A DNA stretch of 64,000 bases, taken from the NCBI GenBank assembly GCA_038078735.1, contig JBBTTI010000003.1, positions 8,538 through 72,537 of the forward strand, in the 5' to 3' direction. Below, piece after piece: positions 2-27,702 of the stretch (positions are counted from its first letter, which is position 1; every line of letters starts with the position of its first letter). A program made the translations under genes and the position numbers. Below the pieces are notes generated by a model. The model was given only the letters and a program-made list of their open reading frames with translations. It was not told the origin of the DNA and ran no database searches. This DNA is from Patescibacteria group bacterium (GTDB taxonomy: Bacteria; Patescibacteriota; Minisyncoccia; Minisyncoccales; CAZWNE01).

Positions 2-691
2 CCTGTTAAGATTATTGCTGAAAAATATAATATTCCTGTTGGACATTCAATGTCTAACATAAAAGACTTGAAACCAGATTTAATTGTGGTGGCTGCTTAT
101 GGTCAGATTTTACCTAAAGAGATTTTGGAAATTCCTAAATATGGCTGTTTAAATGTTCATCCTTCTTTGCTACCAAAGTACAGGGGTGCAACCCCTGTAC
201 AATCTGCTATTCTAAACGGCGATAAGGAAACCGGAGTCAGTATTATTAAAATGGTAGAAAGGGTTGATGCGGGCGGAATAGTATCTAGTATTAAGTGTTT
301 AGTATCCAGAGACGAGACTTATAAAACTCTCTCTGACAAATTAGCGGACTTAGGGACTAAGTCCCTAAGTGAAGTAATCCCAGATTGGGTGGAAGGGAAA
401 ATAAAAGCTTTGCCGCAAGATGAAACAAAAGCGACTTATACGAAAATGATTAAGAAAGAAGATGGACTTATTGACTGGAAGAGCTCAATAGATTATATTG
501 AAAAGCAAGTGCGAGCCTTAAATCCGTGGCCTAGCACCTATACCCTATATAACGGGAAAATATTAAAAATACTAAAGGTAGAAATAACAAACAATAAGCT
601 AATAATAAAAGAGGTCCAGCCGGAAGGAAAAAAACCGATGAATTTTGAAGATTTTCTCCGCGGACATAATGATTTTAAAATACCATGTTAA
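2..691 (+). CDS. fmt: methionyl-tRNA formyltransferase (5' end outside window)
   Basis: Open frame runs to base 2. Translation has Fmt motifs (VAAYGQILPKEIL, NVHPSLLPKYRGATPVQ) and the C-terminal domain. Confidence 0.85.
   Translation, partial: PVKIIAEKYNIPVGHSMSNIKDLKPDLIVVAAYGQILPKEILEIPKYGCLNVHPSLLPKYRGATPVQSAILNGDKETGVSIIKMVERVDAGGIVSSIKCLVSRDETYKTLSDKLADLGTKSLSEVIPDWVEGKIKALPQDETKATYTKMIKKEDGLIDWKSSIDYIEKQVRALNPWPSTYTLYNGKILKILKVEITNNKLIIKEVQPEGKKPMNFEDFLRGHNDFKIPC
349..369. repeat. family D palindrome inside fmt (CTTAGGGACT-a-AGTCCCTAAG)
   Basis: Perfect 10-1-10, in-frame (DLGTKSLSE). A further family-A-like site (GGACATTCAATGTCTAAC) lies at 38..58, also inside fmt. Confidence 0.75.
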
Positions 692-1254
692 CGCATAACG
701 ATTTAAAAAAAGGAATAATCGCTGTCATAGATGGCGAGCCATACGAAATTATTGAATCCCAGTCGGTAAAAATGGCCCAAAGAAGGCCGATTATTCAGTC
801 AAAAATAAAAAATTTAATTACCGGCAGAACAACTGAAAGAAATTTTCAGCAGGGCGATACTTTTGAAGAAGCGGAACTTATAAAACTTGAAAAAAAGTTT
901 TTATATTTTCACAAGGATCGCTATTTTTTTTGCGATGCAGATAATCCTTCAAAAAGATTTGATTTGAGCTTAGAACAAATAGGCCAGGGCGCCAAATTTT
1001 TAAAACCCAACCAAATTATGGAGGTAGTAACTTTTCAAGATAAAATAATCAAAATTTCTTTGCCGATTAAAATTCAACTAAAAGTTATCGAAGCGCCACC
1101 GGGAGTTATGGGAGATCGCGCTCAAGGCGGGACCAAATCCGTTACCTTGGAAAGCGGAGCTCAAATTAATGTCCCTCTTTTTATTGAGCAGGACGACGTT
1201 ATTGAAATCAACACTGAAACCGGCGAGTATACAAAACGAGTTGAGGCGGAATAG
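685..1254 (+). CDS. efp: elongation factor P
   Basis: 189 aa with EF-P fold signature (KMAQRRPIIQSKIKNLITG...). Start overlaps the fmt stop by 7 nt. Confidence 0.9.
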   Translation: MLTHNDLKKGIIAVIDGEPYEIIESQSVKMAQRRPIIQSKIKNLITGRTTERNFQQGDTFEEAELIKLEKKFLYFHKDRYFFCDADNPSKRFDLSLEQIGQGAKFLKPNQIMEVVTFQDKIIKISLPIKIQLKVIEAPPGVMGDRAQGGTKSVTLESGAQINVPLFIEQDDVIEINTETGEYTKRVEAE

Positions 1255-1256
1255 GA

Positions 1257-2270
1257 CTAAGCGTTGTGTTTTATTTCAATAACATCGCCGTCTTGAACGA
1301 TATATTCCTTGCCTTCGGTGCGGATTAAGCCCTTCGCGCGGCTCAGGGCAAAACCGTTTTCATTTAGAAGATCCTGCCAATTTATTACTTCCGCCTTGAT
1401 AAAATGGGTTTCAAAATCGCTGTGGATTTGGCCTGCGGCTTGAGGCGCTGTCTGGCCTTTTTTTATTGTCCAAGCCCGGGTTTCATCCGGTCCAGTTGTA
1501 AAAAAAGTTATTAAACCAAGTATTTCATAAGCTTTTCTAACTAAAATATCCATTTCTGAATCTAAGGGCAGGCCGAGCTCCAATCTTTCTTCTTTGCTTA
1601 AACCGGTGGCTTCAAACTCAGTTAAAATGTCTATTATTAAAAACGGCCAATTATTTTTTTTAAATTCTTCTATTATATTTTGCGGGACTTCTTCATCCCG
1701 GCCATTCAGTAAATATAATCTCGGCTTCATCGTCAGCAGTTGATACGGCTGAATAATTTTTAATTCTTCGGCGCTGAAATTCTGCTCGCTTAAAATTTTC
1801 CCATTTGCCAGAAAATCCTTAACCCTTCCCGGAACTTCTATTTTTTTCTCAACCGTTTCCATATCTTTCAGTATTAATTCCGTATCCAATATCTCCTTAT
1901 CAAATAATGGGTTCACTACCGATTGAGTGTTTATTATGTCTGATTTTAAGAAAGCTCTTAGAATGTAAACAATGGCGTTTGTTTCCCTGATATTAGCCAA
2001 AAATTTATTGCCCAAACCTTCGCCCTTATTGGCTCCTTTGACCAAACCGGCAATGTCAAAAAATTCAATCGTGGTATATATTTTTTTTAGGGATTTAGTT
2101 AATTCGGCCAGTTTATCCACCCTATCATCTGCAACCGCAACCACGCCCACATTTGGGTCAATAGTGCAGAAAGGATAATTCGCTCTATCCACCTGCTTTT
2201 TAGTTATTGTTTCAAAAAGAGTTGACTTGCCCACATTAGGCAAGCCGACTATCCCGATAGATAAAGGCAT
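1257..2270 (-). CDS. ychF: ribosome-binding ATPase YchF (Obg-family GTPase)
   Basis: G1 motif GIVGLPNVGKSTLF and a C-terminal TGS domain. Confidence 0.9.
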   Translation of the reverse strand: MPLSIGIVGLPNVGKSTLFETITKKQVDRANYPFCTIDPNVGVVAVADDRVDKLAELTKSLKKIYTTIEFFDIAGLVKGANKGEGLGNKFLANIRETNAIVYILRAFLKSDIINTQSVVNPLFDKEILDTELILKDMETVEKKIEVPGRVKDFLANGKILSEQNFSAEELKIIQPYQLLTMKPRLYLLNGRDEEVPQNIIEEFKKNNWPFLIIDILTEFEATGLSKEERLELGLPLDSEMDILVRKAYEILGLITFFTTGPDETRAWTIKKGQTAPQAAGQIHSDFETHFIKAEVINWQDLLNENGFALSRAKGLIRTEGKEYIVQDGDVIEIKHNA

Positions 2271-2275
2271 ATATT

Positions 2276-2641
2276 TTATTCCTCGGCTTCTTGTTTAGTC
2301 TTATGGATTGTTCCGTCGGCATGATTTGGCGGAGCATAAATAGTATAGAGTTTAAGCGGTTCGTTTGAAGAAGTATTGATAATATTATGTTTTGTTCCGG
2401 CTGGGACGACTAAAACAAAGCCGTCTTTAATTATTGATTCCTCGCCCTCTAAAATTACTTTACCTGTCCCCTTTTCAAATCTGAAAAACTGATCCAAATT
2501 TTCATGCACTTCCTCCCCTATTTCCTCCAATGGTTTCAAAGACATCAAAACCAACTGGCAATTTTTTGCCGTAAAAATAACTTTTCTAAAAAAATTATTA
2601 TTTCGGACGTCTTGTTCTATATTTGTAATAAATCCCTTCAT
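2276..2641 (-). CDS. cupin-domain protein
   Basis: 121 aa with a cupin-like beta-barrel signature (VLVVPAGTKHNIINTS). Confidence 0.45.
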   Translation of the reverse strand: MKGFITNIEQDVRNNNFFRKVIFTAKNCQLVLMSLKPLEEIGEEVHENLDQFFRFEKGTGKVILEGEESIIKDGFVLVVPAGTKHNIINTSSNEPLKLYTIYAPPNHADGTIHKTKQEAEE

Positions 2642-2650
2642 GTTTTTATC

Positions 2651-3244
2651 TTACCATAGCCATTTGGGAATTGGAATAGCGATTGTCTTTATCTCGTCCT
2701 TTGTTGCTAATTTAAAAGAAATTGAGGTAGCGCAAAGGCAGATGTTTCTATCTTGGCGAACAATAGAATGACCCAATAATTCTAACTGATTGCGAATTTG
2801 GTGGAATCGTCCGGTCTTAAGATTAATCTTAAGAAGAGAGTATTTATTATTAGAAGTAATAACTTCATAGTCAAGTTCGGCTCTTTTTGGTTTACCCGCA
2901 TCGCCTTTTTTAAGAAAATTTACTAAGTTTCCTTTGTTTTGTTTCGGCCTTCCTAAAATCAAGGCGTGATATATTTTCTCAATCGTTCTATTTCTAAATT
3001 GTTCTGAAAGCCGGGAAGCCCCTTTGCTGGTTTTAGCAAATAAAACAATGCCTGAAGCCGGTCTGTCCAAGCGGTGCAGCAAACCCAAAAAGACGTTTCC
3101 GGGCTTCTTATACTTCTCTTTGAGATAAGACTTCACCTCATCCATCAAGCACCTATCGCCCGTAATGTCTCCCTGCGTCAAAACCCCTGCCGGCTTAAAC
3201 ACCGCAATCAAATGATTATCCTCGTATAAAACTTTTAAATCCAT
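2651..3244 (-). CDS. RluA-family pseudouridine synthase
   Basis: HRLDRPASG catalytic motif of RluA/RluD-type synthases. No S4 domain. Confidence 0.75.
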   Translation of the reverse strand: MDLKVLYEDNHLIAVFKPAGVLTQGDITGDRCLMDEVKSYLKEKYKKPGNVFLGLLHRLDRPASGIVLFAKTSKGASRLSEQFRNRTIEKIYHALILGRPKQNKGNLVNFLKKGDAGKPKRAELDYEVITSNNKYSLLKINLKTGRFHQIRNQLELLGHSIVRQDRNICLCATSISFKLATKDEIKTIAIPIPKWLW

Positions 3245-3247
3245 ATT

Positions 3248-4486
3248 TTATACCGCAGATTGGCCGGCGAGAAAACCGGTGCTCCAGCAAAGCTGGAGAT
3301 TATAGCCGCCCGTCGGGCCGTGTAAATTAATAATTTCTCCGGCAAAAAACAAATTTTCAATCAATTTTGATTTCATAGTTTTTGCATCAATCTCTTTTAA
3401 AGAAACGCCTCCTGATGTGATTATCGCCGTTTCAAATCCTAATAACGATAAAACTGTCATTTTTAACCCTTTTAATAATTTAACCAATCCCTGCCTTTCT
3501 TCCTTTGTTATTTCGTTCACTTTTTTCAAGGGATTAATCCCTGATAACTCAATAATAATGGGAATTAATTTTTGAGGCAATAAATCCCTTAAAGAATTCT
3601 TAAAAAATTTCGTCCTATATTTTAGAAAATCGCTTTGAATTCTTTTATCTAGTACTTGTAAGTTAAGGGCGGGTTTCAAATCCAAATTTAATTCTACCTT
3701 ACCTTTATCTAAAAGTTCCCCTACTTTTCCGCTTAAATCCAAAACAATGGGACCGGATATGCCAAAATGAGTAAAAAGAAATTCGCCAAAACGGCTGTCT
3801 TTTTTCTTGCCATTCAGAAAAACCGTCAACTCAACATTTTTTAAAGATAGCCCTTGGGCCATTTTTGGCCAGGCCTCTTTTATTCTCAAAGGAACCAAGG
3901 CCGGTCTTAGTTTTTCAATCTTATGACCTAATTTTTCTGCCCATTGATAGCCGTCGCCCCGAGACCCGGTCTCGGGATACGATTTCCCGCCGGTAGCAAT
4001 AATGTAATTTTTAGCCGCGATTGTTTTATTATTATTTAAAATAATTTTTGCTATCTTATTATTATCTCTAATAATCTCTTTTACTCCGGAATTTGTAATA
4101 ATTTCAACCTCGCTTTTTTTCAGATAATCAATTAATATATCCAGCACATCGCTGGCTTTATCGCTTTCGGGAAATATTCTTTTTCCCCGTTCAATTTTTG
4201 TTTTCAATCCCCTCTTTTCAAAAAATTCAATGGTTTTTTCCACGCTAAGGGCCGCCAAAGGACTTAAAAGAAAATCCCCTTCTCTGCCATATTTTTTAAC
4301 AAGTTCTTGGGGATTGAAATCAGCTCTGGTGATATTGCTTCTCCCTTTTCCGGTAATTAATAATTTCCTGCCCAAAGAAGCGTTTTTTTCCAGCAACGCA
4401 ACTTTTCCTCCCAGCTCTCCGGCCCTTCCTGCCGCCATCATCCCCGCCGGTCCCCCGCCAATAACCACAACATCATAATTGAGCAT
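3248..4486 (-). CDS. NAD(P)/FAD-binding flavoprotein, HI0933/BaiN family
   Basis: N-terminal DVVVIGGGPAGMMAA Rossmann motif followed by GRKLLITGKGRSN, typical of the HI0933-like family. Confidence 0.7.
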   Translation of the reverse strand: MLNYDVVVIGGGPAGMMAAGRAGELGGKVALLEKNASLGRKLLITGKGRSNITRADFNPQELVKKYGREGDFLLSPLAALSVEKTIEFFEKRGLKTKIERGKRIFPESDKASDVLDILIDYLKKSEVEIITNSGVKEIIRDNNKIAKIILNNNKTIAAKNYIIATGGKSYPETGSRGDGYQWAEKLGHKIEKLRPALVPLRIKEAWPKMAQGLSLKNVELTVFLNGKKKDSRFGEFLFTHFGISGPIVLDLSGKVGELLDKGKVELNLDLKPALNLQVLDKRIQSDFLKYRTKFFKNSLRDLLPQKLIPIIIELSGINPLKKVNEITKEERQGLVKLLKGLKMTVLSLLGFETAIITSGGVSLKEIDAKTMKSKLIENLFFAGEIINLHGPTGGYNLQLCWSTGFLAGQSAV

Positions 4487-4500
4487 AAATAGTTTAATTT

Positions 4501-5472
4501 TTAATAATTTGTCGTAATCGTTCGGTGATAAGGCAATAACGGTTCATTTTCTTTAGATAAAACCCATAAAATCCAATCGAGATTACTTGATGTTAAACCC
4601 CTGCCTAAGCCGTTTAATTCCCCAAGGAGCAATTCACAAGCATAAATGGTATTTGTCCTTATTTCTATTTCTTCCCGAGAATTCTTTTCAATTAACTCAT
4701 AATTCGCGAGCTTATTCTTTAATTTTTCACTATAAACTAGTATCCCCTCTGACTCTAAAAGTTGTGGCAACTTATAATCGGCAAATATAGTTAGATCTTC
4801 CATGTTTTTAAAATATCCCGTATTCTTATTTTGAAAAGCGTAATTTATATCACTGACAAATAATTGGGCTCTTTTTAAAAAATATATCTTTTGTCCATTG
4901 GATTCGAAATAATCATTAAAACTTGGGAAATCATTAATAATTAACTCCACAAGTTTATTAACGTTATTTTTTGCCGCCGTAACTAAATTTATAGCCTTGC
5001 CATTATATTTTTCTTGAAGTATTTTAAAGTTTTCTCGGATAATTTCGTGTCGTTCTTTCAACAGTAATAACTCTCCCCTACTCTCAAAAATCTTAGCAAA
5101 TTCGTCAAAAGTTATTTCCGACAAATATGATGCATCAAGTAATTTTTTATCAGCTAAAAACGCTTTTTTAATCGCGTAAGAAAAAGCGTAATAGCCATGC
5201 AGCCACTGGTCGTCTTTTTCAAACTCCCACCGTTTTTTCTCTTGAGTATTCCAAAAACAAAAATTAATACTATCTAGAAAAAAATAGTATTGAACAGTTT
5301 CTTCGGGACTCCCTAAAAATTGCAAGACATTATCCCAGCCAGGAATAGGATATTTTTCAAGTTTTTTTGCTAAAAGAGTAATTTTCGAATTATCTATCCT
5401 AACCGAAGAACTGTTTTTTACAACAGGATCAATTGATCTTAAAATTTTTTCTTTGATAGAAATATTCTCCAT
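4501..5472 (-). CDS. DUF2419/Qng1-like queuosine salvage family protein (tentative)
   Basis: 323 aa. Motif pattern (IPGWDN, FFLDSINFCFW, LHGYYAFSYA) is recalled from the Qng1/DUF2419 family. The assignment is from memory and is not certain. Confidence 0.45.
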   Translation of the reverse strand: MENISIKEKILRSIDPVVKNSSSVRIDNSKITLLAKKLEKYPIPGWDNVLQFLGSPEETVQYYFFLDSINFCFWNTQEKKRWEFEKDDQWLHGYYAFSYAIKKAFLADKKLLDASYLSEITFDEFAKIFESRGELLLLKERHEIIRENFKILQEKYNGKAINLVTAAKNNVNKLVELIINDFPSFNDYFESNGQKIYFLKRAQLFVSDINYAFQNKNTGYFKNMEDLTIFADYKLPQLLESEGILVYSEKLKNKLANYELIEKNSREEIEIRTNTIYACELLLGELNGLGRGLTSSNLDWILWVLSKENEPLLPYHRTITTNY

Positions 5473-5522
5473 AATAAATCTATCATATCAAAAAATCGCC
5501 CCGATGAAAGAGGGACGATTTT

Positions 5523-5580
5523 TTTACTCTATAAATGTCAGGGCCTTGCCTTTTTTGTTCCAGCGGCCGGTTCGGCCGAA
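5523..5580. repeat. 58-bp copy of the helicase 3' end (direct repeat bounding island 1)
   Basis: tttactctataaatgtcagggccttgccttttttgttccagcggccggttcggccga nearly equals 6536..6592, which encodes ...GRTGRWNKKGKALTFIE-stop of the DEAD-box helicase. Confidence 0.8.
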
Positions 5581-5618
5581 TTAAGTGACTCCCGAAGTCG
5601 CTTAACTCCACAAATAGA

Positions 5619-5643
5619 ATGTTAGACACTAAGTACCTAACAT
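5619..5643. repeat. REP-like palindrome, family A (GTTAGACA..TGTCTAAC type, imperfect)
   Basis: atgttagacactaagtacctaacat. Shares the GTTAG..CTAAC arms with copies at 5937, 11598, 36102, 48340, 49009, 55250 and 55651. Confidence 0.7.
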
Positions 5644-5792
5644 CCGACCAGTAGTATAGTAGAGACCCGATCTCTACCTAAGACTTTGGCGATAAAATAA
5701 AAAACCACCCTTCAAATTCATCGGGATGATTTCTTATCCTACGTTATTAAACATTGAATGTTTGATAAACTACAAGTTTCTTTGCTAATAAG

Positions 5793-5917
5793 GGTATTTT
5801 TGAGTTGTCTATCTGGACAAAAGAACTGTTTTTTATAACAGGATCAATCGATCTTAAAATTTTCTCTTTTATAGAAATATTCTCCATAATATATTTATCC
5901 TATCAAAAAATCGCCTG
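5793..5917. pseudogene. duplicated 5'-end fragment of the DUF2419 gene (start codon + first ~30 codons + upstream hairpin)
   Basis: About 125 bp at ~88% identity to 5381..5507 (aagaactgttttttacaacaggatcaattgatcttaaaattttttctttgatagaaatattctccat...). It has no downstream gene body. Confidence 0.75.
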
Positions 5918-5936
5918 CTTGGCGATTCTTGTTGAG

Positions 5937-5961
5937 ATGTTAAACACTGAGTACCTAACAT
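5937..5961. repeat. REP-like palindrome, family A (degenerate)
   Basis: atgttaaacactgagtacctaacat. Confidence 0.6.
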
Positions 5962-6028
5962 TCTATTCTACTGGCACCCTATTGAAGTCAGGCTTCAATA
6001 GAGAGACTTTAACAGAGACTTAAAATAA

Positions 6029-6063
6029 AAAACCACCCTTTAATAAACTCAGGGTGATTTTTT
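6029..6063. terminator. bidirectional rho-independent terminator (A-run, CACCCT/AGGGTG hairpin, T-run)
   Basis: aaaaaaccaccctttaataaactcagggtgatttttt. A diverged paralogous copy lies at 5686..5720. Confidence 0.55.
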
Positions 6064-6214
6064 GTCCTAAATAAATCTTCTTTTGAACACTTACTTAGGG
6101 GAAAGAGAGAAGGGAGGAAAGGTTCTTGTTCTATCCTTAACTTTGTAATTACTCACAAAGGAAGTCCAATTACCCTTTTTAGGATTTCTCCACCTTGCCT
6201 TCTCTCTTATTGGG

Positions 6215-6436
6215 TTACGAGATTGCTTTCATCTGTTTTTGAAAAACTTCTTCTAACAAGCTCTTTGAAAGCTCAAGAAGTTCTTCAGCCGTTACGTGGA
6301 TGGCAACCATCTCTGGTTCCTTCACGGAATTACCAATATTCCGTTTAATATTGGCAATATCCCGAAGAGCCATTTCTTTCCGAAACTGAGCTTTTACAAG
6401 GGCTAAAGCTATCTCGCCTTTTCTCCTCTCGTCCAT
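6215..6436 (-). CDS. hypothetical 73-aa protein carried on island 1
   Basis: Strong SD (aaggaggtgagaacaATG) sits before MDERRKGEIALALVKAQ. The protein is charged, helical and unrecognised, and lies inside the inserted segment. Confidence 0.45.
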   Translation of the reverse strand: MDERRKGEIALALVKAQFRKEMALRDIANIKRNIGNSVKEPEMVAIHVTAEELLELSKSLLEEVFQKQMKAIS

Positions 6437-6536
6437 TGTTCTCACCTCCTTTCTGTAAAAATTTGGAAACGAGAGAGAAACCTTTAAGGTGCTTTGGAAA
6501 GAATTCTACTCTCTTTCCATACCATATGATAACACT

Positions 6537-7736
6537 TTACTCTATAAATGTCAAGGCTTTGCCTTTTTTGTTCCAGCGGCCGGTTCGGCCGATTCTGTGG
6601 ATATATTCGTCAAAAGTCGCCGGCACATCAAAATTAATAACATGGCTGACATCGGCAATATCAAGACCCCTAGCCGCCACATCAGTTGCCACTAAAATTT
6701 GAATACGGCTTTCTTTAAACATAGTTAGGGCTTTTTGGCGCTGGGAGTGATTTTTATTTCCGTGGATGGATTCCGCCCTAAAACCTTTTTGAATAAGTAT
6801 TTTTGAGAGCCGTTCCACTCCGTGCTTGGTTCTGCCGAAAATAAGCACCTTGGTAAATTCCTCTTTAATCAAAAGATTATCAAGAACATCTATTTTATTT
6901 TTACCCCGATCTATTCTGACAATATCCTGATCAACATTACTTGAAGTGTCTCTGGTTTTTACCGAAACTCTTATCGGATTTTTAAGAAATTCTTTGATAA
7001 TTTTTTCCACCGAGTAAGGAATGGTTGCCGAAAAAAACAGCACCTGTTTTTCTTTTGGCAAACCGTTCATTATAAAACGGGTGTCCTGGATAAAACCCAT
7101 ATCAAGCATCCGATCAGCTTCATCCAAAACAACGGTATTAAATCTGGATAAATTAATCATCCTTCTTTCTATCAGGTCCTTGAGCCGGCCGGGCGTGCCG
7201 ATAATTAAATTATAATTATAGCGAAGCTCGGAAATTTGTTTGCCGATGCTCATTCCGCCGACGCAGCAAACGGAAAAAATCCGCATTCCTTTAGTAAAAG
7301 ATTTAAGCTCCTGGTCTATTTGAATGGCCAACTCGCGGGTCGGAGTGACAATCAAAACTTGTTCTTTCGGATTTAATAAAATTTTATTAATAAGGGGTAT
7401 GAGAAAAGCGGCTGTTTTGCCCGTGCCGGTATTGGCAATACCGACAACATCCGAACCGTCAATAATATGAGAAATAATCCGATCTTGGATGGGCGTAGGC
7501 GCATCGTAACCTTTGGCCAAAATAGCCCGAATTATTCGCTGGTCAATTTTAAAATCCTGAAATTTGTGTTCAGATATAAAATTCTCCATTCCTTCTATCT
7601 TTTCAACTACGACTGCTTTATTAATAAATCTTGCCGGATCTATTCTTTCTCCGCGTGAAAACCCCCTTCCTCTAGAAGGGGGCGCTTTAGTCAAGAATTT
7701 TCTTGATCCCGTGTAATGAAAGTTTCTACTATACAT
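6537..7736 (-). CDS. DEAD-box ATP-dependent RNA helicase
   Basis: Q-motif, Walker A GTGKTAAF, DEAD (VLDEAD), SAT and HRIGRTGR motifs. Confidence 0.9.
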   Translation of the reverse strand: MYSRNFHYTGSRKFLTKAPPSRGRGFSRGERIDPARFINKAVVVEKIEGMENFISEHKFQDFKIDQRIIRAILAKGYDAPTPIQDRIISHIIDGSDVVGIANTGTGKTAAFLIPLINKILLNPKEQVLIVTPTRELAIQIDQELKSFTKGMRIFSVCCVGGMSIGKQISELRYNYNLIIGTPGRLKDLIERRMINLSRFNTVVLDEADRMLDMGFIQDTRFIMNGLPKEKQVLFFSATIPYSVEKIIKEFLKNPIRVSVKTRDTSSNVDQDIVRIDRGKNKIDVLDNLLIKEEFTKVLIFGRTKHGVERLSKILIQKGFRAESIHGNKNHSQRQKALTMFKESRIQILVATDVAARGLDIADVSHVINFDVPATFDEYIHRIGRTGRWNKKGKALTFIE

Positions 7737-7758
7737 ATAATAAAATTATACACTATCA

Positions 7759-8868
7759 CTATTGCTTTGTCAATAAATATTGCTTACCCTTTAATTTATC
7801 GGGTAAAAATGACTCTTTGGAGTATTTATCGTAACCGTTGCCGGGATTGTTACGCAGTTCCATGGGAATGGGCAAATTGCCATATTGTTTGACATCGGCC
7901 GTTGCCGCTATATAAGCTTCGTAAGCGCTCCGATCTTTTTTAGCTTGGCATAAATAAACCACTCCGGTTGCCAGATTAATGCCGCATTCAGGCAAACCGA
8001 TTATTTCTACTGCCCTAAAAACATCGTTAGCCACCACCAAGGCCGTAGGCAAAGCTAGGCCGATATCTTCTGAAGCAAAAATAACCATTCTTCTGGCGAT
8101 AAATTTGGGATCTTCCCCCGAATCAATCATCCGCGCCAAATAATACAAAGCCGCATCTGGCTGCGAAGCCCTCATGCTTTTAATAAAAGCGGAAATAGTG
8201 TTGTAATGCTCATCCCCTGCTTTGTCGTATCTTAAAAATTTTGACTGGAGAGCATTTTTTAAATTCTCTTTAGTAATTTCCTTATAAAGTTCTCTAGTAT
8301 TTTCCAGCATAGTTATCGCCTGCCTGGCATCGCCATTGGCCATGTTAATCAGCCAGTCCTCGGCTTCTTTATCCATTTTTAAACCGATTCTCTTGATAAT
8401 GGCTTTCATATTATCTTCTGAAAGTTCGTTCAAAACAAAAACTCGACAGCGAGAAAGCAGAGCCGGGATAACTTCAAAGCTTGGATTTTCAGTTGTCGCG
8501 CCAATCAAGGTAATCTCCCCTCTTTCAACATAAGGCAGTAAAAAATCCTGTTGTGATTTGTTAAAGCGATGGATTTCATCTAAAAATAAAACCTTGGGCA
8601 CTCCCTGCGAATCTTCTTCCAGTAATTTTTTTATATCTGCCTTGCCAGCTGAAACAGCTGATAATTCATAAAGCTTAGCGTCTAAACTATTGGCATATAT
8701 TTTAGCCAAAGTCGTTTTTCCTGTTCCCGGAGGCCCCCACAAAACAAAAGAAAACAAATGCTTTTGCTTTATAGCAACATTCAAGGGCCTATTCTCCCCG
8801 ACCAAATGTTCTTGCCCGACAAATTCCTCCAAATTTTTCGGTCTGATTTTCGACGCCAGCGGTTCCAT
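7759..8868 (-). CDS. rarA: replication-associated recombination protein A (AAA+ ATPase)
   Basis: [11 protein letters not shown] Walker A and a MgsA/RarA-type C-terminal domain. Confidence 0.85.
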
Positions 8869-8943
8869 AAATTTAGCTTACCTTTTCATTTCATCTCCGC
8901 CAAGAGACAACTATTTGGACATCGGATGTCCAAATAGCGTAGG

Positions 8944-9078
8944 CTATTTTTTATTTATGTATTTTAATAAAGCGATTATGCCTAAAACCAACAGGGTAGT
9001 CGCTAAAGTATAGGTAATCCAAGAAAAAAACATCATCCCGCCGCCTGCTCCGCCCATCATATAATTATAATCCATCAT
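8944..9078 (-). CDS. possible 44-aa Met/Gly-rich membrane peptide
   Basis: MMDYNYMMGGAGGGMMFFSWITYTLATTLLVLGIIALLKYINKK. It falls below the ORF-track cutoff, has no clear SD, and hairpins lie just upstream. Confidence 0.2.
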   Translation of the reverse strand: MMDYNYMMGGAGGGMMFFSWITYTLATTLLVLGIIALLKYINKK

Positions 9079-9261
9079 AGATCAAGTCCGCCTCTGGCGG
9101 ACGCAGATAAAGATGAAGCAACAGCTTCATCGCCTAATCGACCTTTCTATATTTTATTATACACTAAATTTTTAATTTATTATCAAACCCCACCAGTAGT
9201 AATAACTATGCTATAGCAATGATATTACTATTCCTAAATTTTATATTTGAATAAATAAGAA

Positions 9262-9292
9262 CGGGTAAACGCGAATGCGTTTACCCGTTTTA
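9262..9292 (+). terminator. hairpin + T-run (GGGTAAACGC..GCGTTTACCC-TTTT)
   Basis: Perfect 11-bp stem followed by tttta. Confidence 0.4.
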
Positions 9293-9374
9293 GCTCAATC
9301 TGTTGCCGAGCTTCTGTTATGCAGAAGCGAAGGCGAAGAAGAGATTTATCTCTTCGCCTAATTGTTTTGGCCAG

Positions 9375-10127
9375 TTATTTCTGGCCGAAGTAACCGGTCA
9401 ACACAGCGATTGGTCCAACCTGGTACTGGGCTAAAGAATTTAGGCCGACAAGTCTTCCTTCTTTATTAAAGTCGGGCTTATCTGTTAAAGGAATTAATCG
9501 GATATCATAACCGTGACCCTTCATACCAGGTGGTGGTCCGGGAGGACCATATTGATTCGCCGGCATACCAAATTCTTTAAAATTAGTCGTTATTTCTAAC
9601 GATCCTGCCGGCATCTTCCCAGGACTCGCGCCTTCAGGCAGTCCGTTAATTTCTGGCGGGAGTAATGCTGCCCAATGTAAGAAAACGTCTCCTGGGAAAG
9701 TACTACAAGGGGGCATTTTCCCATACACAGGCACCTCTTGATTACAAGGAAAGTCAGGATCGGTCATTACCAATAAAAGAGCCTTTGTCCCGACTGGAAT
9801 ACCTCCCCATTTAAGAGGTGGAGAAACCGCTTTTTCGCCTGCATATTTTTGTGGAATCACGCCACCGGATATGAAAGCTGGCGAATATATAAAAAGTTGA
9901 AAACCAGCATCACCTTTCAGACCTGCTGGACCTGCCGGACCACGATCACCGGCTGAGCCAGCTGGACCTCTTTCTCCGGGCGGACCGTTGACTCCGTTTT
10001 TACCTGCCGGCCCTACTGGGCCCATTGGTCCGATTGGACCTTGAGAACCAGTTATCCCGGGTGCCCCTTGGCATGCCACAACTAAAACCAAAATCAGTGC
10101 CAATGCTACCAAGTATATTTTTTTCAC
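9375..10127 (-). CDS. lipoprotein with collagen-like GXY repeats fused to a PEBP (YbhB/YbcL) domain
   Basis: Signal peptide plus lipobox (VVAC). 18 consecutive Gly-X-Y triplets ([25 protein letters not shown]...). C-terminal PEBP motifs ([31 protein letters not shown]). GC content is locally elevated. Confidence 0.7.
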
Positions 10128-10215
10128 CTTTCCTCCTTATTTTTTTACAGATTGAGCTGGGTTGCTGGCGTTATATTAACATCCTCCAAAGCTTTGTCAA
10201 TTAAATTGCTTCTTG

Positions 10216-10244
10216 TTGATGTATTTTAATCCAAGTGGTATATT
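10216..10244 (+). promoter_or_regulatory. sigma70-like promoter (TTGATG-17-TATATT) upstream of the SWIB gene
   Basis: Hexamers at consensus 17-nt spacing, 47 nt before the ATG. Confidence 0.35.
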
Positions 10245-10290
10245 AAGATAGTAAGGTAAAGGTCGGGCAATAAATTTTTAAAAAAATACT

Positions 10291-10545
10291 ATGGCAAAAT
10301 CTAACTCTGCGTTCATGAAGCCGATGAAAATCAGCTCCGAGTTGGCTGAAGTCGTCGGCAAAGGGCCCATGCCCAGATCCGAAGTTGTTAAAAAACTTTG
10401 GGTATATATCAAAAAGAATGCGCTTCAAAATCCCAAGAACAAAAGAAATATACTGGCTGATGCAAAATTGAAGGCGGTATTCAGCGGTAAGGGCGAGGTT
10501 TCGATGTTTGAAATGACCAAGCTTGTTTCAAAACACTTGTCTTAA
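10291..10545 (+). CDS. SWIB/MDM2-domain protein
   Basis: 84 aa aligning to the SWIB fold (SSELAEVVGKGPMPRSEVVKKLWVYIKKNALQNPKNKRNI...MFEMTKLVSKHL). Confidence 0.7.
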   Translation: MAKSNSAFMKPMKISSELAEVVGKGPMPRSEVVKKLWVYIKKNALQNPKNKRNILADAKLKAVFSGKGEVSMFEMTKLVSKHLS

Positions 10546-10557
10546 GTTAAGAATAAG

Positions 10558-10602
10558 AAAGAGCGGATCTACACATGGTGTGCAGAACCGCTCTTTTTTT
10601 TG
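10558..10602 (+). terminator. rho-independent terminator
   Basis: AGAGCGG...CCGCTCT stem followed by an 8-T run. Confidence 0.7.
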
Positions 10603-10637
10603 CGTTAAAAGGGTAAGACGTCAGTCGTCAATAATCA

Positions 10638-11387
10638 TTAATGAACTTTGGCGAGACCAGTTCCTCCCCTAAGATTCGCACCCCCAGTCTTGCAGTAGCC
10701 CTCGATAACTCCGCAGGCATTATTGAAAAGATCCACATTAAAGCCCGATCCATAGGTTTTAGCCATCTCAAGAGAAATATCCCAAGTTTTTATTTGGCCA
10801 TTCTTGAGGAGCTGCTCCAGCACCGTTTTTTTGCAAATAGTATCCATCTGCATCTCGACCCAGGGAGGGCAATAGGGATCCAATCGTTTCTTATACTCTG
10901 CCAGCTTTATCTTGAGTTGGTTTTGACGTTTCTTATCTTCAGGCAAAACAAGAACCGGTGATTCCTTCTCTTTTTCGAGCCTTTCGATGATATTCTGGAG
11001 ATCACCCCGTAAACCTTCTACTATTCTTTCGGGTTTCAGAAAATCTTTAATGATTTCGGGAAGAACCCAGTTTTTTGACTCTTCGCCAGGTTTTGGATTG
11101 GCATCTTTTACGTGAATACGAAAACGTGGACTATCATTAATGCCAATCACGACACCGTCCCATTTGTCTTTCTCTTCCTGGGTAAGTTCCCGGGTCGTAG
11201 CCTTGGGGAATTTAACATTGATGAAGCCGAATCCTTCAACCCAGTTCCCGATGTAATTTTCATCGTCTTCCCCATGGATACTACACAGGTTGGGAGTCTT
11301 GCTACTAATGTCTCCGAGCAGGTGTATAGCTTTTGTTGCCATCATGTAGCGATGCGGTATGTCCTTCCATTTTTTCTCCTCTGCCAT
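10638..11387 (-). CDS. hypothetical protein (249 aa)
   Basis: Long ORF with locally higher GC and no recognisable family. The charged central region is followed by a Cys/Gly-rich C-terminus. Confidence 0.5.
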   Translation of the reverse strand: MAEEKKWKDIPHRYMMATKAIHLLGDISSKTPNLCSIHGEDDENYIGNWVEGFGFINVKFPKATTRELTQEEKDKWDGVVIGINDSPRFRIHVKDANPKPGEESKNWVLPEIIKDFLKPERIVEGLRGDLQNIIERLEKEKESPVLVLPEDKKRQNQLKIKLAEYKKRLDPYCPPWVEMQMDTICKKTVLEQLLKNGQIKTWDISLEMAKTYGSGFNVDLFNNACGVIEGYCKTGGANLRGGTGLAKVH

Positions 11388-11597
11388 TTTGTTTCCCTCC
11401 TTTTTTTATTTATATTAAATCCTATATTAAATGGTTTTATTCAAACCCATCTCTTTTTTAAGTTACGATCTAATAAAAAACAATATCATATTTTTGTAAT
11501 ATTGTCAATGATTTTAGGTAATGTATACAGACATATTGCACTTTTGTAGGTAATCTGGTGGCATATGAAAACTATGCCAAAATCCACAAAAGTGGTT

Positions 11598-11618
11598 GTT
11601 AGACATTGAATGTCTAAC
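11598..11618. repeat. REP-like palindrome, family A (perfect 8-5-8: GTTAGACA ttgaa TGTCTAAC)
   Basis: Perfect inverted repeat in the intergenic space. Confidence 0.8.
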
Positions 11619-11645
11619 ATCCTAATTGTGTCGGGGGGAATGTTT

Positions 11646-13097
11646 TTATTTATCTAAATCAATAATTTCGTCTATCCTTATCTGTTTTACAAACTCCGGA
11701 ATGTGGCTGACTAAAATCATCGCTCCCTCATATTTATTTAAAGCGGCGGCGATAATCGGCAAATGGCGAAAATTAATGTGATTAGTCGGCTCATCCAGAA
11801 TAAGAAGCCCCGGTTTTTGCATCACTATTCTGGCAAAAGACACCAATCCTTTTTGCCCCTCGGATAAACTGCCGATTTTGGAATAAATTAAATCGCCAGT
11901 TATCAAAAAACTTGCGGCCAAAGAACGGAGACTCTCTTCGGAAAAATTTTCAGCCACCGAACTGAGAGAGTGGTAAACTGTGTCATCAAAATTAAGAGTG
12001 GAAAAATCTTGGCGGTAATATCCGACCCTAACATCCGGAGAGATTTTAGCGCCCTTGGCTTTGCCCGAGGCCAAGGATTCAAGCAGCGTGGTCTTGCCGA
12101 TGCCATTGGGCCCAACAAGAAGCAAACGCTCTTTCTTTTTTAAAGAAATACTGACCTCTCGGCGCACTGATTTATAATTTTTCATAACAGAGAAAGAGGT
12201 AATGCTTAAAATTTCTCCGACAATATCCTGCTGAGAAGGAATAATAAATGGCCTGATTGTTTTATCTTCTTTTCTGACTTCAACTTTTTCTTCTTCCATT
12301 GTCTCGGCTTTCTGCCGCATTTTTTTCGCCAAAAATCTCAATTGCCCCCCTTTATGGGCAAAATAATTTGCCTTATCTTTTTTCTCTTGGATTTGTTTTG
12401 CCAACTGGGCGTTTTTTCTGTTTTCTCTTTCTATTCTGGCCTCAATTTCAACCAATAAATCAAAATAATTTCCGATGTACTGCTCAACCTTGCGGGTAAA
12501 TACATCCAAATACAAAACGCCGTGGGTAAACGCATTTAAAAAATTAGTGTCATGAGAAATGACAATGCAGGTTTTTTTATAACCAATGAGGAATTGCGTC
12601 AGCGACGCAATTCCTTCTTTATCAAGGTTATTAGTCGGCTCGTCTAAAAGCAGTATATCGGGATCTTGAATAATAGCCGAAGCCAATAAAAGCCGGGCTT
12701 GCTGACCGCCGGAAAATGATTTGATAATTTTGTCCTTATCGGCAGTAAGATTAACTATTTTAAGGACTTCGTCAATTTTCGGATCAATATCGTATACTTT
12801 TTCCTTAAAACAATTCTGAAAAAATTCTCGGAGAGTTAAATGAAGCGAATCCCGGGGAATTACCTGCTTTGCTTCGGCGACCGTAATTCCGACACCGATA
12901 TTGATCGCTCCGGAGTCGGGTTTAATGGCTCCCGTAATAAGATTAAAAATCGTGCTTTTTCCGGCGCCGTTCTGGCCCATCAAAGTTATTTTTGATCCTT
13001 GCCTGACGGAAAAATCAACCTCATCTAATATGGGTTTATTGCGCCCGTAGGCGAAAGACACTTCACTGAATCTTAATATTTTTTCTCCGTAATTCAT
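11646..13097 (-). CDS. ABC-F family ATPase (two ABC domains, no TMD)
   Basis: Two Walker A sites (GQNGAGKST, GPNGIGKTT), two signature motifs (LSGGQQ, LSEGQK) and a charged linker between them. Confidence 0.85.
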   Translation of the reverse strand: MNYGEKILRFSEVSFAYGRNKPILDEVDFSVRQGSKITLMGQNGAGKSTIFNLITGAIKPDSGAINIGVGITVAEAKQVIPRDSLHLTLREFFQNCFKEKVYDIDPKIDEVLKIVNLTADKDKIIKSFSGGQQARLLLASAIIQDPDILLLDEPTNNLDKEGIASLTQFLIGYKKTCIVISHDTNFLNAFTHGVLYLDVFTRKVEQYIGNYFDLLVEIEARIERENRKNAQLAKQIQEKKDKANYFAHKGGQLRFLAKKMRQKAETMEEEKVEVRKEDKTIRPFIIPSQQDIVGEILSITSFSVMKNYKSVRREVSISLKKKERLLLVGPNGIGKTTLLESLASGKAKGAKISPDVRVGYYRQDFSTLNFDDTVYHSLSSVAENFSEESLRSLAASFLITGDLIYSKIGSLSEGQKGLVSFARIVMQKPGLLILDEPTNHINFRHLPIIAAALNKYEGAMILVSHIPEFVKQIRIDEIIDLDK

Positions 13098-16252: not shown

Positions 16253-17686
16253 ATGCTTAAACTTTATAATACTTTATCGCGAAAAAAGGAAATATTGAGA
16301 CCCTTCGCTAAGGCTCAGGGCGAAAAACTAAAGTTTTTCATCTGCGGGCCGACGGTTTATGATTTTTCTCACTTAGGCCACGCCAGAACCTATATTGCTT
16401 TTGATATGATCGTGAAATATCTAAGGCAAAAAGGATATGATGTTTTTTATCTGCAAAACATAACTGATCTTGATGACAAAATCATAAAACGTGCGGAGGA
16501 AAAAAATATTACGCCCCAAAAGTTAGCCAGAGATTTTGAGAAAGAATATTTAAAAGATATTAAGGCCCTTAAAATAACCAGCGTTTCAAAATACGCCAGA
16601 GCCACGGATTATATTAAGGAAATTATCAGTCAGACAGAACGACTTTTGAAAAAGGGTTTTGCCTATCAAATAGAAGACGGAATTTATTTTGATATTTTAA
16701 AATTTAAAGATTACGGCAAACTTTCACGGAGAACGGTTCTCCGGGCCGAAGACGGAGTTTCTCGGATTGATGAAAGTGTTAAAAAAATAAATAAAGGCGA
16801 CTTCTGCTTGTGGAAATTTTCAAAACCAGAAGAACCAACATGGACTAGTCCGTGGGGTCAAGGCCGGCCCGGGTGGCATATTGAAGATACGGCCATTACG
16901 GAAAAGTTCTTTGGATCGCAATACGATATTCACGGCGGCGCCAGAGATCTGATATTTCCCCATCATGAAGCGGAAATATCCCAAATGGAAGCGATTTCCG
17001 GTAAAAAACCTTTGGTAAAATATTGGCTTCATACCGGATTTTTAACCGTCGATGGCCAGAAAATGTCAAAATCACTGGGGAATTTCATTACTATCCAAGA
17101 TTTTCTCAAAAATCACTCGCCCCGCTTACTCCGATTTTTAGTCATAAAAAGCCACTATCGATCTCCGATTGATTATAGTGAGAAAGTTATTTCTCAAACT
17201 AAAAAAGAATTGGAACGGATAGATGAATTTATTGATAAACTATTGAGGCCGAACCTCCATAGTTTAAAATCGGGGAGGTTCGGCCTCTTAAAATTCAAGA
17301 ACGCTTTTGATAACGCTATGAATGATGATTTTAATACGTCAAAGGCAATAGCTGTAATTTTTAATTTGATTAATAAAGGAAACGCTATAATTGCCCAAAA
17401 TAAATTATCTTCTAGCGATGCTAAAAATATTTTAGGCTTTTTAAAAATAATTGATAAATTCTTTGGTTTTATCTTTTGGCAGAAATCCGAAAATAAGCAA
17501 CCTCAGAGGTTGCTTAGCCTAGTTAAGCAACGGCAAAAATATCGGGAACAGGACAATTGGCAAAAAGCTGACGAGATGAGAGAGGAAATTAAAAAACTAG
17601 GATATTCAATAGAAGACACAAGTAAAGGACCAGTAATTAAAAGAAGCTTAGCTTCTCACTTAGAAGCTAAGCTTCTAAGTACCTAA
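16253..17686 (+). CDS. cysS: cysteine--tRNA ligase
   Basis: HLGHARTY and KMSKSLGN class I motifs. The last ~12 codons are encoded by a family B palindrome. Confidence 0.9.
   Translation: MLKLYNTLSRKKEILRPFAKAQGEKLKFFICGPTVYDFSHLGHARTYIAFDMIVKYLRQKGYDVFYLQNITDLDDKIIKRAEEKNITPQKLARDFEKEYLKDIKALKITSVSKYARATDYIKEIISQTERLLKKGFAYQIEDGIYFDILKFKDYGKLSRRTVLRAEDGVSRIDESVKKINKGDFCLWKFSKPEEPTWTSPWGQGRPGWHIEDTAITEKFFGSQYDIHGGARDLIFPHHEAEISQMEAISGKKPLVKYWLHTGFLTVDGQKMSKSLGNFITIQDFLKNHSPRLLRFLVIKSHYRSPIDYSEKVISQTKKELERIDEFIDKLLRPNLHSLKSGRFGLLKFKNAFDNAMNDDFNTSKAIAVIFNLINKGNAIIAQNKLSSSDAKNILGFLKIIDKFFGFIFWQKSENKQPQRLLSLVKQRQKYREQDNWQKADEMREEIKKLGYSIEDTSKGPVIKRSLASHLEAKLLST
17495..17515. repeat. intragenic perfect palindrome AAGCAACCTC-A-GAGGTTGCTT inside cysS
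   Basis: 10-1-10 inverted repeat read in-frame as ...KQPQRLLS... Confidence 0.7.
17642..17676. repeat. REP-like palindrome, family B (AGAAGCTTAGCTTCT cactt AGAAGCTAAGCTTCT), copy 1
   Basis: Perfect 15-bp arms. It forms the C-terminus and stop region of cysS. Near-identical copies lie at 19683 and 33072, with a variant at 32942. Confidence 0.85.
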
Positions 17687-19099: not shown

Positions 19100-19677
19100 T
19101 GCACTCCCCTACTATTCAAAAATTAATTGATTTGTTTTCCAAATTTCCAACGGTTGGTTCCAGAACAGCCAGCCGTTTTGTTTTTTATTTATTAGGATTA
19201 AAAAAAGAAGAGGTCAGAGAATTGCTGAATAGCATCGCAGATATCCGAAATAAAGTTAAAATCTGCCCTTCTTGTTTTAATCCATTTGAGCCCTTCGACG
19301 CGACTCAGGGTAAATCCGACGTTTGTTTGATTTGTTCTGATCCAAGACGGAATAAATCTCTTCTTTGTGTTGTGGCTAATGAAACCGACTTAGAGGCGAT
19401 TGAAAAAACAAAAAAATATAAAGGTTTTTATTTTATTTTTGAAAAATTAAGGATTAAGGAATTGGAAAAAAAATTAAAAGAACATCCTGAAATTGAAGAA
19501 ATTATCTTGGCTATGAATTCTACCACTGAAGGCGAAGTCGCGACTTTATATTTACAAAGATTATTGGAACCTTTTAAGAAAAAAACAACTCGCCTTGGGC
19601 GAGGTCTGCCAGTCGGCGGTGAATTGGAATATGCCGACGAAGAAACTCTCTCTTCGGCTTTGGAAGGCAGGAAGTAG
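19099..19677 (+). CDS. recR: recombination protein RecR
   Basis: HhH region, C4 zinc finger (CPSCFN...C..C) and Toprim domain. Confidence 0.9.
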   Translation: MHSPTIQKLIDLFSKFPTVGSRTASRFVFYLLGLKKEEVRELLNSIADIRNKVKICPSCFNPFEPFDATQGKSDVCLICSDPRRNKSLLCVVANETDLEAIEKTKKYKGFYFIFEKLRIKELEKKLKEHPEIEEIILAMNSTTEGEVATLYLQRLLEPFKKKTTRLGRGLPVGGELEYADEETLSSALEGRK

Positions 19678-19682
19678 TTAAA

Positions 19683-19717
19683 AGAAGCTTAGCTTCTCAC
19701 TTAGAAGCTAAGCTTCT
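19683..19717. repeat. REP-like palindrome, family B, copy 2 (between convergent recR and rplU; overlaps the rplU stop codon)
   Basis: Identical 15-5-15 palindrome. Confidence 0.85.
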
Positions 19718-27366: not shown

Positions 27367-27502
27367 CGTGCCATTTCATACCCTTATGTATCCTTTATAC
27401 CCCACCTCAAGCCACATCGTCAACAAAATTCCCCACTTCTAAAAATAAGGCTAAAATCAAGATTTATGCACACCTTTTCCCCACCACACATAAATAAAAC
27501 AT

Positions 27503-27585: not shown

Positions 27586-27597
27586 TTTATTCGAAAT

Positions 27598-27618
27598 GAT
27601 AGACGTTCAACGTCTATC
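27598..27618. repeat. REP-like palindrome, GATAGACGTT-c-AACGTCTATC variant
   Basis: Perfect 10-1-10. Sister copy at 35690..35710. Confidence 0.7.
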
Positions 27619-27697: not shown

Positions 27698-27702
27698 TGA
27701 TA

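Follow-up and report, generated by a model that had tools for sequence, protein, structure and literature searches.

The 64,000-nucleotide stretch analysed here, called the window in what follows, is chromosomal DNA (GC content about 38%) from an uncultured member of the Patescibacteria, or candidate phyla radiation. In this window, about 1 kb of additional DNA, named island 1, separates the gene of a DEAD-box RNA helicase from Q_salvage, a queuosine salvage gene (DUF2419). Island 1 may well be a mosaic scar left by integrase-independent recombination with the DNA of diverged relatives, with pairing in the 3′ end of the helicase gene. On the basis of sequence comparisons, we would give this explanation about an even chance. 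It would make the interval between helicase and Q_salvage a recombination hotspot. A preliminary description of the same DNA had instead proposed an insertion mechanism that targets gene 3′ ends and reconstitutes them, in the manner of integrative elements found at tRNA genes.

Read along the minus strand, the helicase gene terminates in a 57-nt segment, B′. Behind it are found a transcription unit encoding a 73-residue protein (the ORF73 unit, where ORF stands for open reading frame) with its terminator T′, a hairpin and a palindrome, P′. A terminator, term′, and a second beginning of Q_salvage, A′, of about 41 codons, follow. After A′ comes segment M, made of a decayed hairpin, a terminator T, a hairpin, a second palindrome P and a last hairpin, x. 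M is joined to B, the second copy of the 57-nt segment, which precedes a terminator, the beginning A of the resident Q_salvage gene and the remainder of that gene. Positions are collected in Table 1.

Table 1. Features of island 1 and of the genes on either side of it (window coordinates)
Feature	Position	Strand	Description and support
DEAD-box RNA helicase	6537..7736	-	intact, 399 aa, upstream of the insert; Pfam DEAD 2.4e-48, Helicase_C 2.1e-34
B′	6536..6592	-	proximal 57-nt repeat, functional helicase end; sequence alignment
ORF73 unit	6021..6559	-	promoter, ~75-nt 5′ untranslated region (UTR), ORF, ~150-nt structured 3′ UTR, terminator T′
ORF73	6215..6436	-	73 aa, predicted all-helical; GGAGGTG 6-7 nt 5′ of ATG
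Structured RNA domain in 3′ UTR	6103..6208	-	closed by invariant stem AAGAGAGAAGG/CCTTCTCTCTT; next hairpin 6066-6099
T′	6021..6069	.	terminator of the ORF73 unit; A-run/hairpin/U-run, -19.5 kcal/mol, z = -4.9
P′	5936..5967	.	REP-like palindrome (REP, repetitive extragenic palindromic); core 5938-5960
term′ + A′	5764..5935	-	term′ hairpin 5908-5928, Q_salvage upstream region, first ~41 codons of a putative second, diverged allele
M	5580..5763	-	putative remnant of a second ORF73-unit 3′ end; decayed hairpin 5745-5773, T, P, hairpin x 5580-5612
T	5693-5741		terminator and last ~15 nt of a unit; A-run/hairpin/U-run, -18.8 kcal/mol, z = -4.0
P	5613-5644		palindrome element; core 5620-5642
B	5523..5579	-	distal 57-nt repeat, displaced helicase 3′ end; still codes IGRTGRWNKKGKALTFIE*
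Native terminator hairpin	5494..5520	-	follows the helicase stop in the empty-site layout; -12.2 kcal/mol; aligns to the L109 intergenic terminator
Q_salvage (DUF2419)	4501..5472	-	intact; Pfam Q_salvage 2.7e-74; 78.9% nt identity to L109

The direct repeats had been described as 58 bp long. They are present and specific to this locus, but their length is 57 nt, with 55 of the 57 positions identical. As had been recognized, they duplicate the terminal codons of the helicase gene, positions 6537-6592 comprising the stop codon and the final 17.7 codons. The repeat is not a generic one. The window holds only its two copies, and none would be expected by chance for the perfectly identical 34-nt core (5546-5579 and 6559-6592). 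Among 119 fetched comparison loci, designated here by L-numbers, the core is found at helicase 3′ ends only, apart from the displaced copy of L001, a contig that represents the window's own locus. The two differences between B and B′ (AAG/AAA and CTG/TTG) are both synonymous. Because there are only these two and the full reading frame is kept, B would be a clean gene end that was functional until recently. It is joined seamlessly to a terminator of the empty-site type and then to Q_salvage. At present, B appears to be an inert leftover, while the helicase gene itself is intact.

Assembly might be suspected of having created this arrangement, by stitching in series, through the 34-nt core, a unit-bearing and an empty allele from two strains. 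The core is indeed an exact repeat longer than the k-mer length of 31 used for the Logan contigs, which stop exactly there, and the two halves of the locus resemble different alleles. Nevertheless, such an artefact is very improbable. Logan contigs of four runs cover positions 5550-6588 without interruption and at 100% identity, leaving the junctions between A′ and M and between M and the core of B unbroken. The same linear order is seen in two independent large-k assemblies, and L001, an independent ENA contig from Hainich groundwater, is 99.98% identical to the window. Moreover, the variants specific to B′ are linked to the ORF73 unit on one unitig, and a simple mixture of alleles would not yield the junction between A′ and M. 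Logan unitigs are compatible with either a circular form or an integrated copy of the insert.

It had been supposed that the window contains extra DNA with respect to an empty site. Such a site does occur, its precise form being seen in a different species only. In that related species (L109), the helicase gene is followed by a 52-nt spacer carrying a terminator, then by Q_salvage, HI0933 and PseudoU_synth. L109 aligns to window positions 7745-6536 and then, without a break, to positions 5579-2714, and B′ and B both align with the end of its helicase gene. Since L109 is colinear on both sides, the window has 956 extra bp in addition to the 57-bp duplication. A similar layout is found in L119, where a 131-nt spacer lies between helicase and Q_salvage. 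In L117 and L118, the helicase stop codon is located 7 nt before the start of a HI0933-like gene (L117:2143-2192), and both the unit and Q_salvage are missing. Going by L117, Q_salvage is itself variable at this locus. L004 has the helicase, the same leader and a homologue of ORF73, its contig ending inside this ORF. Thus, the relatives are polymorphic at the locus and their contents are not identical: the window, L117 and L004 have helicase genes 92-93.5% identical in nucleotide sequence (93.5% for L117 and 92.8% for L004 against the window, compared with 83.2% for L109), and yet their arrangements all differ.

The flanks of the insert appear to be phylogenetically discordant across the joint. 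The identity between the window and L117 is 93.5% in the helicase gene versus 84.4% in HI0933. The corresponding values with respect to the outgroup L109 are 83.2% and 80.2%. The unit of L004 is likewise a mosaic when compared to that of the window, with about 95% identity through B′, the leader and the start of the ORF, and then about 69% inside the ORF.

The interior of the insert also reads as a mosaic rather than as a single cargo. A 125-bp duplicate of the 5′ end of the DUF2419 gene had been reported. It is there, but it is longer, A (5349-5500) and A′ (5764-5915) being 84% identical over 152 nt that reach from the region upstream of Q_salvage through its start codon and about 41 codons. 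A′ belongs to an open frame of 46 aa (5747..5887). Over codons 1 to 38, third positions account for 12 of the 18 differences between A and A′, and the four amino-acid changes in A′ are all states present in Q_salvage orthologues. When the changes are polarised with L109, L119 and L110 as outgroups, nine are derived in A and 12 in A′, two being ambiguous. Per 144 nt, A and A′ differ at 23 positions, A and L109 at 25, and A′ and L109 at 26, so that the three sequences are about equidistant. In a local pseudogene, a much longer branch would be expected. For this reason, A′ seems to behave as an orthologue from another lineage and not as a decaying local copy. Its own terminator and upstream region are contiguous with P′ and with the ORF73 unit. 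Together with the orthologue-like divergence, this contiguity suggests that A′ once belonged to a working Q_salvage gene in a lineage where the unit was already present at this place. Like B, A′ now appears to be an inert leftover. The two paralogous terminators that had been noticed are likewise borne out, T and T′ being 80% identical and each consisting of a hairpin with an A-run on one side and a U-run on the other. T includes TAGGATAAGAAATCA, and the ORF73 unit ends with TAGGACAAAAAATCA. M would derive from a second ORF73 unit, diverged by 20-25%, of which it represents the 3′ end.

These data bear on a purely local history, in which the end of the helicase gene and the start of Q_salvage would have been duplicated in tandem, followed by insertions of the unit and of REP-like elements and terminators, by a 92-nt deletion and by decay, gene conversion keeping B and B′ alike. 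In a variant of this scheme, the duplication would be old and both copies of Q_salvage would have been functional for a long time. Blocks A-B-P-T and A′-P′-T′ do align head to tail, with spacings of 415, 318 and 328 nt, and palindromes and terminators of this kind recur across the window. In spite of this, we consider a local history unlikely. A′ has no long branch: derived changes are not overrepresented in it, and its distance to the outgroup is about the same as that of A. The bias of the A/A′ differences towards third positions is not that of a decaying copy. The divergence is also unequal, 3.5% between B and B′ against 16% between A and A′, as if the two duplications were of different age. 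Finally, the copies are interrupted, with 184 nt of filler and a 600-nt insert between them in place of a single clean junction, and both the discordance of the flanks and the mosaic unit of L004 would be left unexplained.

The ORF73 unit looks like a self-contained, stand-alone transcription unit. A sigma-70 promoter is predicted at 6554..6526 (TTGACA-17-TATCAT with an upstream TG, 11 of 12 consensus positions), the top promoter match in the region. Its -35 box, TTGACA, lies within the L-T codons of the helicase in B′ and is made perfect by the synonymous change from CTG to TTG. In agreement with the strong ribosome binding previously attributed to the 73-residue ORF, a strong Shine-Dalgarno sequence precedes the start codon, and the pattern of variability is that of a coding sequence (26, 14 and 51 variable columns at codon positions 1, 2 and 3). 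Twenty-four close homologues, 67-89% identical, were collected, and the family comprises about 226 clusters. AlphaFold2 predicts four helices (predicted local distance difference test, pLDDT, of 75). As to function, no usable match was obtained in Pfam, PHROGs, NCBIfam, PADLOC, a sequence-profile search of the PDB or a Foldseek search of the PDB, and ten distant family members gave no match in Pfam either.

Conservation is higher in the 3′ UTR than in the ORF, with 29% versus 41% of variable columns. RNAalifold applied to six sequences proposes 52 base pairs in this region, five of them with compensatory changes, and the fold of the whole unit has a z score of -7.0. Searches against Rfam, of the whole window at gathering thresholds and of 5300-6800 at E <= 5, returned only tRNAs and chance matches (E > 1). 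At the level of these searches, the ORF73 unit and the structured 3′ UTR that belongs to it form an uncharacterised family.

DNA 78-86% identical to the unit, from the -35 box to the terminator, is found in L084, L086, L089-L108, L112 and L115, with unrelated flanks (L084:5878-6388, L086:5876-6386, L099:3472-3899, L112:2636-3103, L115:1948-2427). At least five unrelated Patescibacteria contexts thus hold the unit from promoter to terminator. It is located in arrays of small genes in L084 and L086, after a tRNA gene and FtsX in L112, and upstream of gpsA in L115. In L089-L108, which are of the Rifle groundwater type, it lies between an IS481-like (rve) transposase gene and the 5S rRNA gene (for example L099:2326-4230). 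The unit therefore seems able to relocate as a whole between genomes. In these other genomes, it is bracketed by no repeats of gene 3′ ends. No viral contig matched the DNA pattern of the unit, the ORF73 protein profile or the repeat core, and a metagenome scan with a 25-base pattern from the 3′ UTR retrieved a single contig, already in the comparison set.

Several features of these other contexts may be mentioned for their own sake. In L089-L108, the 23S gene of the rRNA operon contains several LAGLIDADG-encoding introns, and the DNA beyond the transposase gene varies between contigs. In L115, the unit is bracketed by 102-nt inverted repeats, 98% complementary (1715-1816 and 2520-2621), one arm of which is directly upstream of gpsA. 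In L086 (4600-7320), every small gene of a variable array, the ORF73 unit included, is preceded by a promoter-like repeat of 35-70 nt, TTGACTTTTTGTAAAAACAGAGCCAGAG. In L110 (6884-10990; Nealsonbacteria GCA_043822605), about five small genes, coding mostly for membrane proteins, are arrayed between Q_salvage and fpg. They are separated by direct repeats of 70-110 nt made of a terminator and of the promoter-like GATAGGATA, and Q_salvage itself is preceded by the same element. In L112 (2328-2514), the 3′ end of a tRNA gene recurs as a 22-nt copy (91% identity) 114 nt downstream of that gene, with about 92 nt enclosed. This has the appearance of a classical integrative-element footprint. It does not bracket the ORF73 unit, which begins 120 nt further on. 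In L084 and L086, the DNA upstream of the unit was also examined for a decayed helicase end, the presence of which would have spoken for a mobile circle with B as part of it. The local-alignment signal (p ~0.01 against shuffled sequences) was not robust and was rejected, since most of it comes from TTGACA and L099, L112 and L115 do not show it.

Recombination with diverged relatives, the explanation that we prefer, may be formulated as follows. Donor relatives would have carried the ORF73 unit at this same locus. Their DNA, upon entering the cell, would have paired with the conserved last codons of the helicase gene and would have brought in B′ joined to the unit, the resident end B, with its terminator and Q_salvage, being pushed about 1 kb downstream. 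One possible route is a Campbell-type single crossover of a circularised fragment, which would duplicate exactly the homologous segment. A homology-anchored illegitimate join may be envisaged as an alternative. In experiments with E. coli, a single crossover of a circular molecule produced duplications of the homologous segment, here lacZ ends, of 109-950 bp (PMC3240628), and the orphaned 3′ regions of Rhs and type VI secretion system (T6SS) loci have been proposed to stem from displacement anchored in homology (PMC5361080). At least one more event of this type would be needed for A′, the 5′ end of a donor Q_salvage gene, and for M, the 3′ remnant of an older unit. Two events, in either order and direction, would be sufficient to give the whole layout: one would have left x joined to B, and the other would have joined A′ to the middle of the older unit. 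At the joint between x and B, for which the parental sequences were not recovered, about 2-3 nt (AAT) may be argued to be microhomology. The sequences themselves show the empty site, the anatomy of the repeats, the mosaic with its orthologue-like divergence and the occurrence of the unit in unrelated contexts, whereas the route of recombination, the number and order of events and the side that was imported are what we infer from the present layout.

Three sets of observations are in keeping with homologous pairing. The helicase gene with B′, and B with the DNA downstream of it, are each colinear with L109. The duplicated pieces, as far as small numbers allow, carry the divergence of two lineages, orthologue-like in A′ and synonymous between B and B′. 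Discordance or mosaicism is observed across the joint, in the flanks compared to L117 and in the unit of L004. The reconstituted gene end of the preliminary description is thus present, in that an intact end adjoins the insert, but homologous pairing, and not an integrative element, is its most likely origin.

A second candidate island of the window deserves to be considered next to the first. Island 2 is bounded by 98-nt direct repeats (27492-27589 and 29164-29261, 90% identity) that contain the final 13 codons of a ClpB-like gene as well as its terminator region. Its interior (27590-29163, ~1.6 kb; GC content 0.43-0.47) contains a HAD-like gene of 359 codons and an orphan ORF of 83 codons. 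A terminator and a palindrome adjoin the distal repeat. The outer topology is the same as in island 1, as had been noticed earlier, and a common recombinational route for the two islands is plausible. As a further observation, two copies of a palindrome associated with a 40-nt hairpin element (100% identical), at 48336-48409 and 49005-49102, delimit an island 3. These boundaries are 669-693 nt apart, around a stretch without a confident gene.

The shared topology may also be read as the mark of an integrase-less remnant or satellite of an integrative element, similar to a cis-mobilizable element (CIME). The attachment sites attL and attR would then correspond to B and B′, and a tyrosine integrase would reside elsewhere in the genome or in a helper. 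Direct repeats that span a gene 3′ end, with the intact copy adjoining the insert, a relative with an empty site, the perfect identity of the 34-nt core and the GC-rich, foreign cargo of island 2 would all agree with this scheme, and the duplicated tRNA 3′ end of L112 raises the possibility that integrative elements are active in the clade. However, we hold it to be rather unlikely. Neither integrase, transposase nor REP-associated tyrosine transposase (RAYT) was found within the island, among 40 ORFs of the window that were scanned with Pfam or in the Pfam annotation of L001 (window positions ~215-12376), a result that for integrases agrees with what had been said before. Of 75 further helicase loci, each examined over as much as 6 kb downstream, none has a second copy of the last 60 nt of the gene. 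Hence, the helicase 3′ end does not seem to be a recurrent attachment site. The repeat and the cargo are on no viral contig, and elsewhere the ORF73 unit lacks comparable att-like repeats. The insert holds an other-lineage fragment of the downstream chromosomal gene, A′, together with a half-deleted second unit. These pieces would not be predicted by integrase action, whereas recombination between diverged alleles would predict them, which leaves the integrase model unsupported. In view of the missing recombinase, of the lack of recurrent use of the site and of the mosaic cargo, a mechanism like that of tRNA- and 3′-end-targeting integrative elements is not upheld. A literature search on cassettes with direct repeats in Patescibacteria found no report of that kind.

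The palindromes call for separate consideration. Both palindromes located between the repeats belong, as is now apparent, to a family, TGTTAG-N11-CTAACA, of which the window has 11 copies (starting at 37, 5620, 5938, 11597, 27597, 35689, 36102, 48339, 49008, 55249 and 55650), where none would be expected by chance. The stems show compensatory variants, the copies are concentrated in variable intergenic regions, and those inspected adjoin terminators or directly trail them. The family fits the definition of REP-type sequences, that is, short intergenic palindromes present in multiple copies far above chance. A second palindromic family, of 48 nt (AAGAAGCTTAGCTTCTCACTTAGAAGCTAAGCTTCT), is also observed at gene ends (17632-17679, 19673-19720 and 33062-33109; 85-98% identity).

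It may be imagined that these palindromes, with the adjacent terminators, are signals for a RAYT-like or integron-like recombinase placing cassettes behind genes, the duplicated gene end being a by-product. The 11 palindromes in 64 kb with their preference for variable regions would be consistent with this idea, as would their positions: islands 1 and 2 each have one at a distance of 7-40 nt from the distal repeat, and in island 3 both repeat copies have one beside them. The arrays of small genes bounded by repeated terminator or promoter elements in L110 and L086 could be invoked as well. We nonetheless find this scenario quite improbable. Neither a RAYT nor an integron integrase was found among the scanned window ORFs, the palindromes are near-perfect 23-nt hairpins unlike attC sites, and the spacing between them and the repeats varies. 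Copies of the ORF73 unit in other genomes are devoid of TGTTAG-N11-CTAACA palindromes. A location just 3′ of terminators is, besides, ordinary for REP elements. More broadly, the clade might possess a dedicated trans-acting system, so far unrecognised, that moves small promoter-to-terminator cassettes behind conserved genes. Segments of identity with gene 3′ ends, REP-like palindromes or both would be its recombination signals, and islands 1 to 3 and the arrays of L110 and L086 its products. We regard this as improbable.

Several points weigh against recombination between diverged relatives as the origin of island 1. No donor allele was recovered from the comparison loci, that is, neither a full-length Q_salvage gene with an A′-type 5′ end nor a unit followed by T, hairpin, P and x. 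The model requires at least two events. L117, on which the comparison of the flanks is based, is itself rearranged, and the statistics of A′ rest on about 20 substitutions, with individual tests giving p values of roughly 0.04-0.07. The divergence between B and B′, lower than that between A and A′, would also fit a younger duplication of B. We explain it by a stronger constraint on helicase motif VI, in which the window and L109 differ at only 5 of 57 sites. A homology of 57 nt is short for a RecA-mediated crossover. Lastly, the regular presence of a palindrome by the distal repeat (islands 1 and 2) or by both copies (island 3) would not be predicted from random recombination and could hint at a site-directed process.

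Elsewhere, the window has an ordinary chromosomal content. Among the genes checked are those of DnaB, CysRS, TGT, a penicillin-binding protein, MraZ/RsmH, a ClpB-like protein, ribosomal proteins, ThrRS, GatB and MiaA. A gene on the minus strand at 9375-10127 encodes a protein of 250 residues in which a PEBP domain is found together with a collagen-like G-x-y repeat. The sole gap between the window and L001 (~9948-9964) falls in the repeat region of this protein.

The helicase locus would offer a concrete and datable case in which recombination has led to gene flow between diverged groundwater lineages of uncultured Patescibacteria. It also indicates that an integrase need not be assumed wherever small inserts are flanked by duplicated gene 3′ ends, a point of relevance to automated callers of islands and attachment sites. 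ORF73 adds a conserved small-protein gene that changes genomic position, its protein and RNA being unannotated and widespread in the phylum (226 protein clusters). The ORF73 unit and the variable regions associated with palindromes are, in our opinion, the parts of most interest. Should the less probable idea of a dedicated system be true, repeat-bounded cassettes would constitute a new integrase-less mobility system, in a phylum with poorly known mobile elements.

Island 1 may finally be compared with known systems. Integron cassettes carry attC sites of 57 nt or more, with an imperfect R″-L″...L′-R′ organization, and depend on an IntI/attI platform. The palindromes of the window are, in contrast, 23-nt near-perfect hairpins, and no integrase was found in the scanned window ORFs. 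The P family is closer to REP sequences and bacterial interspersed mosaic elements (BIMEs), which are also short, multi-copy intergenic palindromes located just 3′ of terminators, with compensatory stem variation. It differs from them in that no RAYT was seen in the window, in being lineage-specific and in its tie to variable regions. CIMEs and genomic islands at gene 3′ ends share with island 1 an integrase-less insert, direct repeats that include a gene 3′ end and accretion into composites. Island 1 departs from these in that no cognate integrase is seen in the window, the site is not recurrently used, no internal copy of the attachment site is present and the insert holds an other-lineage fragment of the downstream chromosomal gene.

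In the minimal mobile elements of Neisseria, reportedly described by Saunders and Snyder in 2002, gene content is said to vary between the same two conserved genes. The states of the present locus (helicase followed by HI0933, by Q_salvage, or by the unit and Q_salvage) are reminiscent of this situation, with no mobility genes and presumably an exchange through flanking homology. Exchange in the minimal mobile elements reportedly occurs by a clean double crossover that leaves no duplicated gene ends, unlike what is seen in island 1.

Homology-facilitated illegitimate recombination (HFIR) with displacement, as discussed for Rhs, contact-dependent inhibition (CDI) and T6SS effector-immunity loci (PMC5361080), offers another parallel. 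In those loci too, new DNA is found directly behind a conserved upstream anchor, the old downstream part, including a conserved 3′ piece, is shifted and kept as an orphan, and repeated events lead to arrays. The anchor is here a housekeeping helicase gene, and the cargo is a tiny stand-alone gene instead of a toxin tip with its immunity gene. In the case of a Campbell-type crossover (PMC3240628), the homology is 57 nt at the present locus against 109-950 bp, the circle is hypothetical, and the insert is a mosaic that would require an earlier rearrangement. The resemblance lies in the direct duplication of exactly the homologous segment on either side of the insert, in the gene end rebuilt from the incoming copy and in the fact that a site-specific recombinase is not needed. 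The type of scar seen in island 1 is, in this respect, already known.

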